Origin: a virus | Length of the DNA stretch: 64,000 bases | Direction: 5' to 3' (one strand) | IMG/VR virus record: IMGVR_UViG_3300050821_018287 | Span: 1-64,000 of that record | Shown here: piece after piece, positions 25,819 through 33,611 of the stretch | Position numbering within the stretch: the stretch's first letter is position 1 | Layout of the letters: every line of letters begins with the position of its first letter | The notes under the pieces: generated by a model | Databases searched by the model: none | Seen by the model: only the letters and a program-made list of their open reading frames with translations | What the model was told of the DNA's origin: nothing | Position numbers and translations under genes: made by a program

Positions 25819-25890
25819 TTGCGCCGGGGGGAGTTGAACCCCCTACCTCCGGGTTATGAGCCCAGCGAGCTACCGTTGCTCCACGGCACG
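25819..25890 (-). tRNA. initiator tRNA-fMet (CAT)
   Basis: CGTGCCG-TGGAGCAACGGTAGCTCG-CTGGG CTCATAA CCCGG-AGGTA-GGGGG TTCAACT CCCCC-CGGCGCA-A; C1:A72 mismatch and three G-C pairs in the anticodon stem; CCA not encoded. Confidence 0.95.
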
Positions 25891-28168: not shown

Positions 28169-28897
28169 TCAACTGAAAACCTTGGTGTTTGGTCCTATCA
28201 CGAGAGGACCGGAATTGACATTGGGAGCTGCGGACCCGGCGCCTTTGACCACGGGCTTCGCCGGCATGTAGCGGACCGCCTTCGCCACCGGCACCTGCGC
28301 CTGAACGAAGATGGAGGCGCGCCGGTAGCGCCGATCCACGTTCTCCTCGTCGTCCAGGTACCGCATCCGCTCCATCGAGTAGGTGGCGCGCTCGTTGAAG
28401 TAGTGGGGGAGATCCAGCCGAAACCCGTACATGAAATCGACCGGGTTGAAAGCCGCCTCGCACATCGCCATCAGCTCCCGGCGCATCGCCCGGTCCACCG
28501 CCCAGATGTCGACGATGATGGGGAGTGTGAACTCCGCCAGCTTCAGGAGGTAGGGGCCGTCGATGTCGGTGCCGATCTTGTAGCGAGGATCCAGCGTCGG
28601 AGTGAAGCTGTGCGCGTCGTAGATGCCTTCCTCCTGGCTCCACACCGCCGCCGACGGGTACTCCGCCTGGGACTCGGCGTCCGCCCACTCGGAGAAGACC
28701 TTGTTGAAGCGGACTTCGCGCCCACCCACCGCCACCGCCTTCAGCGTCAGGAGGTACTCGGCGAGCCCCCGCGTCAGCGCCGTCCGCGCGTCCGTCTCGC
28801 GGTTCAGCGTGTAGGCCACCGGCTTCGTGTCGGAGGTGACGAGGGTGGTGCCGGGGATCGGCGAGAGGTCCACGCCTTCCGAGGGGAGATCGCTCAA
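28169..28897 (-). CDS. tail terminator / neck protein
   Basis: YPSAAV motif; directly upstream of the sheath; TTG start overlapping the previous stop. Confidence 0.65.
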   Translation of the reverse strand: MSDLPSEGVDLSPIPGTTLVTSDTKPVAYTLNRETDARTALTRGLAEYLLTLKAVAVGGREVRFNKVFSEWADAESQAEYPSAAVWSQEEGIYDAHSFTPTLDPRYKIGTDIDGPYLLKLAEFTLPIIVDIWAVDRAMRRELMAMCEAAFNPVDFMYGFRLDLPHYFNERATYSMERMRYLDDEENVDRRYRRASIFVQAQVPVAKAVRYMPAKPVVKGAGSAAPNVNSGPLVIGPNTKVFS

Positions 28898-29415
28898 CGG
28901 ATCACCCCCAACCCGGACATCGCGCGGTCCAACGCCCGGCGGATCTCCTCGTGAATGAAGCGGGTGATCTCCTTCCGCGCGCCGGTGAGGACGCGCCGCG
29001 CGCGCAAGCCACGCTTCCCGATTGCCTTCGAGACGGGGAACGCCGCACCCTCCGCCTCCGACTTCGAGAGCCCCGCGCGCCTCTGCAACCAATGAGCGAT
29101 CGGGGCGAGCGGAGGCGGGCGCGCCCCGCGGCGCCGGCCGAACTCGATGACACCCGAGTAGGGCATGAGGTTGAAGACGAGAGCGCCGGTGGGGGTGGGC
29201 TCCGACTTCCAGCCGCGAGCGTAGTCGCCGGTGTTGAAGGCGCCCACCTGTCCCTTCGGGCTGGCCGGCTTCGCTGTGCGGGCGCGGGTGTGGAGAAGCG
29301 GAAGCGCGCGCAGAGCGCCGGAGACGATGCCCTTTCGGGCCTCGTGTTTGAAGCTCTGGCCGAGCGCCTTGTAGTGCTTCTCCAGGCCCTTCAGGGAGAT
29401 CTTGACCGTAATCAT
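28894..29415 (-). CDS. neck / tail-completion protein (HK97 gp10-like)
   Basis: NTGDYARGW...VFN..PYSGVIEFGRR...PPLAPI..W...IGKRG. Confidence 0.8.
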   Translation of the reverse strand: MITVKISLKGLEKHYKALGQSFKHEARKGIVSGALRALPLLHTRARTAKPASPKGQVGAFNTGDYARGWKSEPTPTGALVFNLMPYSGVIEFGRRRGARPPPLAPIAHWLQRRAGLSKSEAEGAAFPVSKAIGKRGLRARRVLTGARKEITRFIHEEIRRALDRAMSGLGVIR

Positions 29416-29969
29416 CAGAAGCCCGGCTGCCCATCCCGCGCGCGATCCTCGTGCGCCTTCTCCAGCGTCACCTGCCACTGAAACTTGCCGGCGAAGAACT
29501 GCGGCGCGGCGCGAAGCTGAAAGCGGCGCTTCTGCCCCGAGAGGCCGTCCGAGCGAAGGAATTCCACCTCCCAGAAAATCTCCTGGTCGTTCGGAATGGG
29601 CGTGCCGTCGTCGTCGATCCCGCGGAGCTGCTCCTCCGTGAGCTGCCCGGAGATCTGCGTGACGAGAATGGAGCCCACTTCGTCGAGGCCCACCGGCTGG
29701 ACGATCTCCTGGACCCCGGCGAGATCCGTCATCTTCGGCGTCGGCAGGAGGAGAAACTCCGAGCCCGGGATGAGGTTGGGCATCCCGAGCCCGCGAGAGC
29801 CTCCGGACCACTGCACCCGAACGATCTTCACCGTGTACGGACGCATCCCGAATACGCTCAGCAAATCCCTCAGCTTGTCGGCGACAGGGAGCAACGTCCG
29901 CTGGAGCGTCTTCGCGAGCTGGAGCCCGGTGACCACCGTGAAGGGCCCGCCCTGTTGAGGAAGGGACAT
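29415..29969 (-). CDS. head closure / head-tail connector
   Basis: Synteny; beta-rich. Confidence 0.6.
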   Translation of the reverse strand: MSLPQQGGPFTVVTGLQLAKTLQRTLLPVADKLRDLLSVFGMRPYTVKIVRVQWSGGSRGLGMPNLIPGSEFLLLPTPKMTDLAGVQEIVQPVGLDEVGSILVTQISGQLTEEQLRGIDDDGTPIPNDQEIFWEVEFLRSDGLSGQKRRFQLRAAPQFFAGKFQWQVTLEKAHEDRARDGQPGF

Positions 29970-30383
29970 TTACCCGTTCCTCGTGGGAATGGAGCCGGCG
30001 CGGCCCGGCCCGCCGACGGTGCGGTAGCGCATCGAATAGGCGTAGACGGGGACCCCGAGGATGTCCGCGAGGCGATACCCCCACCGGCGGTATTCGTCCT
30101 CCAGCCGCTCCAGCTCGTCCGAGCGCAGGGTCAGGTCGTCGAGCTTGTCCGCGGCGAGCCGATCCTGCCCGGCGATCAGCTTCGTCTCGATCCCGTCCAT
30201 GATGTTGATGTAGCGGCGCACGCGATCCTCCGCGTACGGCACCAGCAACGTCACCGCCGACTCGAAGAGGAAGGCGGTTTGAATGGGCCGGGGGATGCCG
30301 AACTGGATTGACGCCGCCGGCTGCACCTCTGGGTAGCCGAGGTGGTACCGGCAGCGCTCAATCTCGGGCTGTGAAAGGGCCAT
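29970..30383 (-). CDS. head-tail adaptor
   Basis: Synteny; RCRYHLGY helical protein. Confidence 0.6.
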   Translation of the reverse strand: MALSQPEIERCRYHLGYPEVQPAASIQFGIPRPIQTAFLFESAVTLLVPYAEDRVRRYINIMDGIETKLIAGQDRLAADKLDDLTLRSDELERLEDEYRRWGYRLADILGVPVYAYSMRYRTVGGPGRAGSIPTRNG

Positions 30384-30408
30384 TCCTACCGCTCACGTCG
30401 AGGAGCGG

Positions 30409-30699
30409 TTACCCCTCGATCGGCTCCATCTCCACCTTCGCCAGCTTCAGGTACTCGACGTCGTGTGAGTGGCTCGTCACCACCTGGCCGGCGGCGAAGA
30501 AGTGGATCGCGCCGTTGTAGTTGATGTGGCGGCCGACCTTCACCCGGTACTTCTTCGGGCCCTCTTCCTTCTGCGGAGCGGCTTCCTCGGCAGGCTTGGA
30601 CTCCGGCACGGCGACCGCGGACACCTCCACCTTCGCGTCGCCTTCCGCCGGGGCCGCCACTTCCGACTCGCCACCATCGATCTTCACGCGCTTGCCCAT
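30409..30699 (-). CDS. small capsid-associated hypothetical protein
   Basis: GAGGAG RBS; ATG at 30699. Confidence 0.7.
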   Translation of the reverse strand: MGKRVKIDGGESEVAAPAEGDAKVEVSAVAVPESKPAEEAAPQKEEGPKKYRVKVGRHINYNGAIHFFAAGQVVTSHSHDVEYLKLAKVEMEPIEG

Positions 30700-30721
30700 G
30701 TGAGCTTCTCCTCGGTCAAGG

Positions 30722-31217
30722 AAAGTGGAGGTGGAACGCTGAGGTGAACTCTCGGGAATCCGGTCTGACCCGACCGTGGGGGGATGTCCGCGAGTACGAT
30801 CCTCTTGTTCCGACCTCCGATGTGAAGCGGTTCCGTGGCAAAAGCCAGGGTTTGCTTCACGTGGGGACGTGTCGAAACCTGGGCAGCAAGCCCGAGGGCG
30901 CAGTGATTCGGTACGCAGATGACAGGCAGTGACCGACCGCCAGGCGTCGAGCGTACAGGCACAATGCTGGTGACGCGTCCGTGGACCACCTCGTTGGAGT
31001 AGCTCTCGATTGGGGAGAGCATCGTGGTGGTGGAGCCGTGGAGCGACACTCCATGTGCGCTTGGGGCCCCGTTGTAGGTTGGCACGAGGCCAACACATTC
31101 GACGACGGCGGGGGCGCCCGCGGGTGCTTCCACTCTGGCGCCGCTCTCCGTCAAAAGGATCTCCTTCTGTACTGCGAGGGGGGTGGCGCGAATCGCAGAA
31201 ACCGCGCCACCTCCCCT
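30722..31217 (+). ncRNA. candidate large structured ncRNA of unassigned family
   Basis: At least nine stems within ~500 nt of intergenic DNA; long-range closing stem 30724-32/31126-34; non-Watson-Crick positions are mostly G-U when read on the + strand. Confidence 0.55.
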
Positions 31218-31231
31218 GGCCCTGGCAAGGC

Positions 31232-32617
31232 TTAGCCGTGCTCGATGGCGACGAAGCGCTTGTAGCGCGCGGCGTCGCCGGTGGTGGCGTCCGTCCGGAT
31301 CGGCCAGTCACCCATGAACTTCCAGCTCGCGGACACCAAGTCCTGGAGCCGGTTCAGCGGCGAGCGGAGGAGGAGCTGGATGCGCTCGGTGTTCACCTCG
31401 ATGCCGTTGTTGCTGATGCGCGGCTCGCCCACCTTCCCGGTGACACCGGCCTCGGTCAAGAGCAGCGCGAGGTCGATGTAGTACTCCATGATGCCGCCCT
31501 GGCCGGTGAACAGCGCCCGGTGGACCGGCACGGAGCTGGCGTTGAGCAGCTCTCCCGGGAACGGATCCGTGAGGATGTAGTTGCCGGACTTGTCGCCCAC
31601 GGTCTCCTTCAGCGGCGACTCCGTGTTGCGGAAGAAGGCGACACCGAGGATGTAGCCGATGCCGAACTGCTTGTACATGAAGTAGTCCGGCAAGGACGTG
31701 TGGAGGCGCTGCCACTCGGGATCCGCGAAGATCTCCGACTCGGACGTCGGGTCCAGGTGGCAGTGGAAAGCGCCGTCGGTGTGCTCCGGGACGTTCTCCT
31801 GGCGCATGCGGGAGACCGCGGAGCGGACCGCCTGCATCGTGAGCAGCGAGCCCGCGTTGATCGAGTCGATCGAGTTGCCTCCGCCGACGCGCACTAGCAC
31901 CGAGGCGTCGTTGGAGATGACCGGATCGCGGGAGGAGAACGTCTGCGCCACGTCGAGCGTCAGCGTTCCCGGCCCCACCTCATCCCCGGGGTTGGTCGAG
32001 GAGAAGCCGATCACGTTCACCGAGAGCGGCACGCCCGCGTGGATGATGTTGATGGGGAGGGGGTTGTTGCCGGTGACGACGCTGAACTGCACCGGGCTTC
32101 CCAGCGCCAGATCCGGCCGGCGGGAGCGGGTGAAGCCGTTCAGCCGGACCACCGGCAGCGACGTGGTGGCCGCGCCGGAGGCCGAAGCCACCGTGTTGCC
32201 CGACAGCGCCGCGTTGAACATCCTGTTGCGGACGATCCGGTTCAACGTCTGTCCCGCGGCGAGCCCGAGCTGCTGAGCGTTGCGCAGGAAGAGGTTGGCG
32301 ATGGCGACGATGCTCGTCGGCATGTGGGTGTCGATCGTCTGCGCGTACTGCTGGACGATCGCGTTCCACTGCTCCTCGGTGTACGTCTGAGGAATCGGGT
32401 CCTGGCCGGGGACGATGGGCTGTCCGTTCGGCGGGATGAGCCCGGTGCCGGTGAAGAACATCGAATCACCGACGTTCCCCGGGAAGATGACGGGGGCTGC
32501 CTCGCCTCGGTACAACAAGCGGGGGAAGAGAGCATCATGGAACGCACGCTCCAGGATTCCATCCTGCACCAGGGCGCGGATGTTGGGATCCTGGAGAATG
32601 ACGGTAAAGTCGGCCAT
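31232..32617 (-). CDS. major capsid protein
   Basis: 461 aa after the scaffold; HK97-fold hallmarks (QLGLAAGQTLN, IGYILGVAF, DLVSASWK). Confidence 0.88.
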   Translation of the reverse strand: MADFTVILQDPNIRALVQDGILERAFHDALFPRLLYRGEAAPVIFPGNVGDSMFFTGTGLIPPNGQPIVPGQDPIPQTYTEEQWNAIVQQYAQTIDTHMPTSIVAIANLFLRNAQQLGLAAGQTLNRIVRNRMFNAALSGNTVASASGAATTSLPVVRLNGFTRSRRPDLALGSPVQFSVVTGNNPLPINIIHAGVPLSVNVIGFSSTNPGDEVGPGTLTLDVAQTFSSRDPVISNDASVLVRVGGGNSIDSINAGSLLTMQAVRSAVSRMRQENVPEHTDGAFHCHLDPTSESEIFADPEWQRLHTSLPDYFMYKQFGIGYILGVAFFRNTESPLKETVGDKSGNYILTDPFPGELLNASSVPVHRALFTGQGGIMEYYIDLALLLTEAGVTGKVGEPRISNNGIEVNTERIQLLLRSPLNRLQDLVSASWKFMGDWPIRTDATTGDAARYKRFVAIEHG

Positions 32618-32627
32618 CGGTTTGACT

Positions 32628-32713
32628 CCTCGTACGGTGGAAAAACGTGGTGCTACTACCTCACATCCCAGGCCGTGAGGTCAACTGCTCCGCCGTGATT
32701 TCCACCGTCGAGG
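32628..32713 (-). promoter_or_regulatory. stem-loop in the capsid 5' UTR overlapping the RBS
   Basis: ACGGTGGAAA(32634-43)/TTTCCACCGT(32699-708), extended by CCTCG/CGAGG; inner CCTCAC/GTGAGG. Confidence 0.55.
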
Positions 32714-32723
32714 GCCCTGCGAC

Positions 32724-33611
32724 CTAGGTCGGAACGGTCATCCCGCGCCTGCGGATTTCCGCTGCGAACTCAGGTCCCGACAGCTTCTTCACGTCAAGGC
32801 CGTTGCCCTTCCCGCCTCCGGCAATTTCCCCGGGCTTCGGAGGAGTCTGCTCTCCCCCCTTCGTCCCGGTTGTGGCGGGCTTCGTCACCTTTGGCGCTTC
32901 ACCGAACAGGTACGGGCGATCCGTCTTGAGCTGTTCGAGCCACTTCGACTCGTCGAACCCCTTCAGATCCTCCTCCGACTTCCCCTTCAACTCCGTGCGC
33001 AGGAGGAAGACGGCCACCGGAACATCCTTGACACCGGCCTTGTAGCAGGCGTCGCGGATGGCCATTTCGGTCTCCGTACCTTCCTTCTCCCGCTCGGCCC
33101 GCTTCCGGGCTTCGGCCTCTTGTCGGGCCTTTCGAGCGAGTCCCTGACGCTCCTTGTCCCACTCCGCGCGGTCCCGCTGGTAGCGGGCCCAGGCCCGCCG
33201 GTCGTTCCGGCCTCCTGGGGGTGGCTTCGGCTCGCCGTTGGAGGTGGTGGTCTCCCGGGTCTCCCGGGTCTCCCGCCGCTCTCCGCCCTTCGGGGACGGA
33301 GCGGACAGCTTGGCCAGGACATCATCGAAGGACTGGAAGCCGGCCTTCTTGATCTTCTCCTGGAACTCCGCGAGCGCTTCCTTGCGTCCGCGGTCCTTGC
33401 TGTCGTCCAACCGCTTCTTCAGCGCCTTCGATGGGATGACGACGTTTTTCCCGTCGCCCACCACCGTATCGCCACCGGCTCCGGCAGCCTTCGCCGCCGC
33501 TGCCTTGTCTGCCGCTTCCTTCGCCGCCGCTTCGGCCGCTGCTGCTGCCGCTGCATCGGGTGGGGGAGGTGTACCTGCTCCTGGTCCTGCTCCGTCTTTC
33601 GCGTCCGGCAT
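32724..33611 (-). CDS. capsid scaffolding protein
   Basis: Charged coiled coil; C-terminal RPYLF motif; precedes the major capsid gene. Confidence 0.85.
   Translation of the reverse strand: MPDAKDGAGPGAGTPPPPDAAAAAAAEAAAKEAADKAAAAKAAGAGGDTVVGDGKNVVIPSKALKKRLDDSKDRGRKEALAEFQEKIKKAGFQSFDDVLAKLSAPSPKGGERRETRETRETTTSNGEPKPPPGGRNDRRAWARYQRDRAEWDKERQGLARKARQEAEARKRAEREKEGTETEMAIRDACYKAGVKDVPVAVFLLRTELKGKSEEDLKGFDESKWLEQLKTDRPYLFGEAPKVTKPATTGTKGGEQTPPKPGEIAGGGKGNGLDVKKLSGPEFAAEIRRRGMTVPT

Follow-up and report, generated by a model that had tools for sequence, protein, structure and literature searches.

A structured RNA behind the major capsid gene represents a family of large RNAs in a lineage of uncultured phages

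To our knowledge, large structured RNAs without an assigned function are few in bacteria and phages (OLE, GOLLD, ROOL, HEARO, and raiA), and each of them is structurally or mechanistically unusual. ROOL and GOLLD, two large ornate RNAs that occur commonly in phages and prophages, are usually found near tRNA genes, in varied contexts. Stable or structured RNAs are also known from other settings, i.e., bacterial small RNAs that derive from 3′ UTRs (CpxQ, SroC, and DapZ), flavivirus sfRNA and related exonuclease-resistant RNAs, which accumulate as stable structured molecules from a viral 3′ UTR, and the pRNA of phi29, which is approx. 170 nt long, is encoded at the end of the genome, and plays its role on the portal. 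GOLLD and ROOL have both been described as abundantly transcribed (PMC5737381, PMC2864571, PMC9241854) and as forming RNA-only multimeric cages (bioRxiv 10.1101/2024.12.08.627333). In addition, a bulk prediction of RNAs in IMG/VR exists, which comprises 10,006 unnamed candidates (Fremin et al. 2023, PMC10690425).

The locus described here belongs to a window of 64,000 nt, which is part of a 92,257-bp IMG/VR virus genome (IMGVR_UViG_3300050821_018287). The best-supported description of what it encodes is a sense RNA of approx. 350 nt in the 3′ UTR of the major capsid gene, which ends at a terminator-like helix and appears to accumulate as a separate molecule. Judged by sequence comparison, this RNA appears to represent a new large phage RNA family, unmatched in Rfam and of the same general kind as GOLLD and ROOL, to which it is unrelated by model. 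When the whole window was compared with Rfam 15, only a tRNA gene was matched (25819-25890, - strand; 57 bits), which is located inside the late structural region. The gap behind the capsid gene, taken with 200 nt on either side, returned three chance-level matches at E <= 10 (11-23 bits against cut-offs of 39-218), and twenty related loci gave no Rfam match. ROOL, GOLLD, OLE, HEARO, tmRNA, RNase P, group I/II introns, and self-cleaving ribozymes all stayed below the Rfam gathering score; the original prediction had likewise assigned the element to neither tmRNA, RNase P, nor group I/II introns.

The capsid RNA resembles ROOL and GOLLD (RF03087 and RF01998) in being phage-borne, several hundred nucleotides long, and built of many covarying helices. 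However, it has no covariance-model match to either of them, it is smaller (approx. 350 nt in the window), and in every case it follows the capsid gene, within the 3′ UTR, in a single phage lineage. The family shows features of a 3′-UTR-derived RNA, namely a location on the same strand as and downstream of the capsid gene in all members and a terminator-like 3′ end. Like CpxQ, SroC, and DapZ, the RNA follows a coding gene on the same strand, ends at an apparent mRNA terminator, and has a 5′ end that is plausibly cleaved; nonetheless, it is 5-10 times longer, far more structured, and phage-encoded, and it contains no evident seed region or Hfq-type module. With sfRNA it shares the property of being a stable structured RNA from the 3′ UTR of a viral transcript, although the bacterial decay machinery differs and the 5′ end of the capsid RNA lies 12 nt before its first helix. 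The phi29 pRNA is also a phage-encoded structured RNA tied to head morphogenesis genes, but nothing ties the capsid RNA to packaging.

Every gene in the surroundings of the RNA lies on the - strand. A scaffold protein gene (32724-33611, -; Pfam Phage_scaffold, phrog_194) is found upstream of the gene for the 461-aa major capsid protein (31232..32617, -), which was delimited from its open reading frame and translation; the protein matches phrog_1357 (major head protein) and shares 27-31% identity with proteins annotated as major capsid proteins in phages of Streptomyces, Ralstonia, and Komagataeibacter. Between the stop of this gene and the ATG (30699) of a 96-aa gene, p96, there is a gap of 532 nt (30700-31231, -), and both its coordinates and the capsid identity of the gene in front of it bear out the original description of a large gap behind the capsid gene. 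As read from the sequence, p96 and its Shine-Dalgarno sequence GAGGAG (30708-30713) together occupy 30409..30713 (-), and they are followed by p137 and then by the neck genes. The GC content at codon position 3 (GC3) is 0.91-0.93 in the capsid, p96 (0.91), and p137 genes and at most 0.70 in every phase of the gap, including the two open reading frames found there (30684..31154 and a frame continuous with p96). Neither of these frames has a Pfam or PHROG match or any protein-level match among approx. 215 related loci; protein-level conservation of 30684..31154 was looked for specifically, and none was found. The gap is thus non-coding, and a protein-coding reading is ruled out by the low GC3, the absence of a family match, and the lack of a conserved open reading frame. 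Comparison of the gap with 50,697 phage records by blastn revealed no similar DNA.

Two observations concern the neighbouring genes. The small protein gene (30409-30699, -, in the window) has a counterpart of 96-140 aa 3′ of the RNA or terminator in every relative; its product has a low-complexity middle rich in Pro, Ala, and Glu and matches no Pfam or PHROG family, and a DPLEAAK-like start motif, which is present in most of the small proteins of L001-L014, is missing from the window copy. Further downstream, a 396-aa open reading frame (28894-30084, -) has a GC3 of only 64%, compared with 91-93% in its neighbours, and only its residues approx. 224-391 match phrog_5 (neck) and relatives. The true start of this gene is probably much later, with another gene, perhaps 29415-29969, filling the rest.

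The gap folds better than dinucleotide shuffles on both strands, and the margin is wider on the sense strand. For the 532 nt, the z-score is -4.07 in the sense (-) direction, with 0 of 100 shuffles folding as well, and -2.78 in the antisense (+) direction against its own shuffles; for the 356-nt part that is found in RNA libraries (30727-31082), the values are -3.48 and -2.17, respectively. The comparison with shuffled controls that had been proposed for each strand was therefore passed by both of them, whereas the claim that the element folds best antisense does not stand. It is true that the raw energy is lower on the + strand (-254 vs. -231 kcal/mol); however, this is because that strand is G-rich (35% G). 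Nearly all of the stems that had been proposed were recovered in a base-by-base check and recur in minimum-energy folds (30761-65/30772-76, 30821-30861, 30881-84/30890-93, 30911-16/30951-56, 31002-07/31015-20, 31039-43/31049-53, 31078-83/31089-94, and 31178-90/31203-15). The closing stem, proposed as 30724-32/31126-34, is present but has just 7 bp (30725-31/31128-34), and its 5′ half lies outside the piece found in RNA libraries.

A functional RNA on the + strand, antisense to the late mRNA, as originally proposed, is very improbable. In its favour, besides the lower raw energy, the non-Watson-Crick positions in the stems of the window do read as G-U on the + strand, as had been noticed, and in the core alignment A-C/C-A combinations outnumber G-U on the sense strand (22 to 11); this latter count, which comes from a model-fitted alignment, is dominated by frayed outermost positions and is uninformative on strand. 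Against it stand not only the z-scores but also three kinds of sequence signal. C-UUCG-G forms an extra-stable RNA tetraloop, and in 44 non-redundant elements CUUCGG outnumbers its complement CCGAAG by 98:10, compared with 14 vs. 21 in the adjoining capsid genes; on the + strand these UUCG loops would read CGAA. The helix followed by a U-run at P5, the long-range helix at the 3′ end of the element, is found on the sense strand only. Finally, the covariation term of alifold, calculated from the same alignment of three related loci (L004, L013, and L056), is poorer in the antisense direction (-9.0 vs. -13.7 in the sense direction). On the strength of these four lines of evidence, the antisense reading is rejected, and the RNA is read in the direction of the late genes.

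Parts of the region 30300-32700 are present in 16 public soil runs, of which 12 are RNA libraries. In each of the four RNA runs examined, which come from four samples, a single contig was found with 100% identity (30727-31082, 30731-31082, 30731-31080, and 30731-31071); the eight other RNA runs, which are no part of the evidence, contain 5-14% of the sampled words. At their two ends, the contigs coincide to within 4 nt and 11 nt, and such coincidence is a weak hint of a discrete molecule only: neither the strand of an RNA nor its true ends or level can be read from assembled contigs, and all samples may stem from one campaign. In run X3, the contig runs into the Illumina read-1 adapter right after 31082, which means that the sequenced fragments ended there. 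If the library is dUTP-stranded, a type that is assumed here, the adapter would mark 31082 as the 5′ end of a - strand RNA, which is a further point against transcription of the + strand. Runs X3 and X4 also contain small pieces of the capsid gene, and in the four runs no RNA contig covers 30300-30704 or 31083-31223, although missing cover does not prove absence. The depth of the RNA piece is 34, 23.6, 19.5, and 5.45 and that of the capsid pieces 4.8 and approx. 2, bearing in mind that per-contig depth cannot rank genes. Pairing in P5 extends as far as position 30727, next to the U-rich tail, and it is at the base of this helix that the RNA contigs end. The 5′ end near 31082 is located within one arm of a small hairpin, and a promoter scan found no sigma-70-like promoter. 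The same 350-nt piece would not be expected in four libraries from DNA carry-over. Thus, 30727..31082 (-) is likely the mature RNA, with its 5′ end at approx. 31082 and its 3′ end at approx. 30727-30731. The large structured RNA that had been predicted is therefore indeed structured, non-coding, and covarying, but its size in RNA libraries is approx. 350 nt rather than 500.

In sense order, the first feature of the 3′ UTR is a GC-rich hairpin of 13-15 bp (31178..31215, -), seen in the sequence and in the minimum-energy fold, which begins 17 nt past the capsid stop. It is not followed by a U-run, is not called a terminator by a consensus scan, and lies outside the RNA-library piece; it may be the 3′ end mark of a capsid-only message or an exonuclease block. 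The capsid-gene contig of run X3 stops at 31224, just before this very stable hairpin. The likely mature RNA, known as a single contig from each of the four soil runs, is predicted to fold into five domains in a row that fill the contig stretch exactly. A 12-nt single-stranded leader precedes the hairpin of domain 1 (31032..31070, -), which is predicted only, from minimum-energy and centroid folds. It is followed by module 2 (30985..31031, -), which consists of helices P2a and P2b and a 3′ internal loop and is shared with relatives, in which it covaries; by domain 3 (30865..30980, -), a branched variable region that in the window is predicted only by folding; and by the core hairpin (30821..30861, -), scored at 46.1 bits (E 3e-10) by the core model R1, of which the window is one of seven seeds. 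Domain 5 (30727..30818, -) is closed by P5, which covaries across 29 relatives, and contains a CGGUC-loop hairpin (30761-65/30772-76). The U-rich tail ACUUUCCUU (30718..30726, -) follows directly after P5.

Relatives of the capsid protein (53-65% amino-acid identity) were gathered from IMG/VR and JGI metagenomes. In all of them, the order is capsid gene, small gene, and p137 homologue, and between 394 and approx. 1,100 nt separate the capsid stop from p137, with more in a few cases; the RNA itself measures 300-600 nt in relatives. The first common sequence, a 30-nt stretch found by blastn, corresponds to the hairpin 30821-30861, i.e., the core. It is built of a 7-bp lower stem, an internal loop in which AAA faces AACC, and an upper stem whose pyrimidine-pyrimidine mismatch is conserved, and its consensus reads GC-AAACCC-U-GGC[loop]GCC-A-YGG-AACC-GC; across the family, the lower stem is variable, 5-7 bp long, and closed by G-C and C-G. 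Model R1 detects the core in 38 of 100 non-redundant loci at E < 0.01, in every case on the capsid (sense) strand and 105-408 nt behind the capsid stop, with the sole exception of L017 (846 nt); a second-round model, R2, added a few variant cores. Within the alignment, 89% of cells are paired, 10 of 13 pairs show double changes, and a single position has as many as five types of pair. The covariation score is 0.566, compared with 0.131 for shuffled alignments and 0.06-0.16 for slid partners, and none of 500 shuffles reaches it.

The exact core pattern, GCAAACCCTG-N4-20-CAYGGAACCGC, occurs 46 times in the 2.9 million viral contigs of IMG/VR, where approx. 0.35 chance matches would be expected by our own estimate from the information content of the pattern and an assumed collection size. 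All 46 copies point in the sense direction, preceded by a capsid homologue (with an identity as low as 43%) and followed by a homologue of p137, and they form 44 clusters below 85% identity. The element therefore constitutes a family of at least 44 non-redundant phage contigs, in all members of which it has one fixed place and one orientation, and three of its modules (the core, module 2, and P5) are kept by compensatory changes, as covariation in the capsid-downstream regions of relatives shows.

Manual inspection revealed module 2 in 29 relatives. The module combines the outer helix P2a (often ACCCG.../...CGGGU) with P2b, an apical hairpin of free sequence (31002-07/31015-20 in the window), and with a conserved unpaired 3′ strand, an 8-nt internal loop that reads UACUCCAA in the window and UACGCCAA[C/G] in relatives. 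In P2a, strands from one and the same member form a more stable duplex than strands combined from different members (-11.5 vs. -7.6 kcal/mol; permutation p <= 5e-5). With R3, the model of module 2, the window copy, itself among the seeds, reaches 31.4 bits (E 3e-5); the significant matches of this model are its 8 seeds and one new locus, L056, and three further loci with copies already recognised manually (L002, L008, and L055) match at the expected places with E 0.1-0.2. R3 is a weak model, as its seed is a structurally inconsistent MAFFT alignment. P5, in turn, pairs GGAGGU-CGGAAC with GUUCC-ACCUCC in the window. One of its strands lies just past the core (consensus approx. GGCGGC) and the other 20-30 nt before the next start codon (GCCGCC), and the 29 relatives again show a preference for the own partner (-19.6 vs. 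-16.6 kcal/mol; p <= 5e-5).

Global MAFFT alignments of the elements recovered the core only, and outside the three modules the family is unalignable. This also applies to the equivalents of domain 3, although they covary within the subfamily L004/L013/L056 (three sequences, approx. 70-75% identity). In this subfamily, 41 of 139 predicted pairs are compensatory along approx. 500 nt, which indicates that the whole length is selected for structure. A pseudoknot between the loop of module 2 (GCCAA) and a post-core UUGGC was considered and rejected, own and cross energies being alike (p = 0.13). A hairpin with a (Y)CGGUC loop recurs in approx. 20 of the 44 members, usually 20-70 nt upstream of the core; in the window it is located downstream of the core (30761-30776, -). 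The elements hold CGGTC 74 times and GACCG 39 times, and this hairpin is possibly a fourth module or part of a loop-loop contact.

The distribution of the core on the capsid tree is patchy. It is present in 40 of 98 rows, which requires at least 10-18 changes, and at least 10 of them are forced by well-supported branches. Two pairs of close relatives were compared directly. From L040 (4131-4330), exactly the 41-nt core hairpin is missing with respect to L048 (3990-4240), with 84% identity in the flanks and 76-84% over the whole gap; in L061 (4040-4240), the apical half of the core has been lost with respect to L151 (4040-4280) and a short hairpin is left. L040 and L061 are natural deletion mutants of the core module, and part of the patchiness is real loss. 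The core has been removed cleanly from close relatives in which the remainder is preserved, and the RNA therefore does not require it for its role. Such presence/absence polymorphism among close relatives might also be expected of a mobile-element relic (an ORF-less intron, a MITE, or a decayed homing-endonuclease cassette), or the region could be a degraded protein gene. However, the core pattern occurs in one context only (46 of 46 copies among the 2.9 million viral contigs) and the hairpin is present in a single copy in the 92-kb genome; moreover, no intron model matches, there is neither a coding signature nor a conserved open reading frame, and covariation testifies to ongoing selection for structure. 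A relic of either kind thus has very little probability.

With regard to hosts, only two contigs carrying capsid relatives were found in 185,579 species genomes, and both belong to MAGs: L218 (CAYVOK010000047.1) and L219 (PMZA01000066.1), from bins assigned to Acidimicrobiaceae and Armatimonadetes. These bins give at best a weak hint at the host range. L218 carries the core hairpin (R2, 27 bits). In the nearest cultured capsid relative, Streptomyces phage Kromp, the corresponding gap has 58 nt and no element is present.

Relatives with short gaps provide a different view of the same site. They have a textbook intrinsic terminator, i.e., a long GC hairpin and a U-run, in the interval that separates the capsid stop from the ribosome-binding site in front of the small gene, and such a plain terminator suffices in approximately half of the relatives. 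In L001, L005, L007, L016, L022, L025, L045, L135, and L145, a GC hairpin of 10-17 bp with a U-run lies within the first approx. 130 nt after the capsid stop. The presence of these terminators implies that, in the whole lineage, the downstream head and tail genes need read-through or a promoter of their own. The large RNA ends in P5 and a U-run exactly where the short-gap relatives have their intrinsic terminator, and it shares with the latter the place, the strand, and the succession of helix and U-run before the ribosome-binding site; the difference is that the 'loop' of P5 and the upstream modules add 300-500 nt of conserved structure. At the position of the U-tail, most members have '(C)AC UUUU' 18-30 nt before the start codon, and 17 of 30 relatives pass a simple test for a stem and a U-run (at least 5 U in 7) at this place. 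The window has a weak U-tail, with 5 U in 9, and no terminator is called there by the consensus scan. Taken together, P5 and the U-tail resemble a terminator, and the element looks like a greatly elaborated terminator region.

This resemblance underlies the main rival explanation, according to which the element acts purely in cis. It would be an elaborated terminator or attenuator as well as a 3′ stabiliser for the capsid mRNA and would determine how much capsid protein is made relative to the downstream proteins, whereas the species of 350 nt would be no more than a decay-resistant leftover with no function of its own. The fixed address, with position and orientation constant in 46 pattern copies and 38 model matches, and the dispensable core, which is so patchy on the capsid tree, both favour this explanation, as does the fact that the element takes the place of a plain terminator, with a helix and U-run 18-30 nt before the next start codon. 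Nonetheless, a terminator needs only approx. 30 nt, yet more than ten helices and invariant unpaired motifs are kept over 300-600 nt. Moreover, the piece in the RNA libraries is separate from the coding part of the capsid message and excludes the hairpin near the stop codon, unlike a 3′ protective cap. The amount of conserved structure and the separation from the capsid message thus favour a function of the RNA itself, and a purely cis-acting element seems rather unlikely, even though it has to be taken more seriously than any other rival.

Overall, the explanation that we consider probable is a structured 3′-UTR RNA that exists as a free molecule and would act in trans late in infection. Late transcription would pass through the capsid gene and the post-capsid hairpin and stop at P5 and the U-tail, whereas the 5′ end near 31082 would be generated by cleavage or at an unrecognised promoter. 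The compact fold might allow the RNA to outlast the mRNA and hence to accumulate in free form. The invariant unpaired nucleotides, i.e., AAA/AACC in the core and UACGCCAA in module 2, could represent the working surface, which would most likely dock a protein or another RNA; with such a docking surface, its late action in trans would correspond to what has been suggested for other large RNAs of phages. The terminator would also, as a side effect, reduce the expression of genes behind the capsid gene. In its most specific form, in which a large RNA of 300-600 nt is free and very stable in soil, acts in trans late, and uses its invariant loops as the active surface, this explanation is tentative and may well prove incorrect. 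Candidate roles in trans could include those of a protein scaffold or decoy, perhaps directed against a host defence or an RNase, or of a self-assembling particle like those of ROOL and GOLLD.

The origin of the 5′ end could also be explained by self-processing, i.e., by a new self-cleaving ribozyme or an RNase-guiding structure whose cut produces the end at 31082. The sharp fragment end at this position, followed by the adapter, is consistent with such a cut, and the two helices with conserved internal loops (the core and module 2) could dock with each other in the way in which loop-bearing helices do in hairpin ribozymes. On the other hand, no self-cleaving family of Rfam matches even at E <= 10, the sequence of the putative cut site is not conserved, and the core can be deleted, all of which makes self-processing improbable, and the free, trans-acting RNA is preferred.

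The capsid RNA comes from uncultured high-GC phages of soil and sediment, and it forms a clear family with covarying modules and a fixed genomic address. The very stretch predicted is present in RNA libraries, which is unusual for a metagenomic prediction. Within this lineage, nature has also performed an experiment, as the RNA is complete in some close relatives, lacks its core hairpin in others, and has only a plain terminator in its place in yet others, and this series shows a route from a simple terminator site to a large RNA. Action in trans would make the RNA a new effector RNA of phages, whereas action restricted to cis would make it an unusually ornate way of setting capsid stoichiometry.
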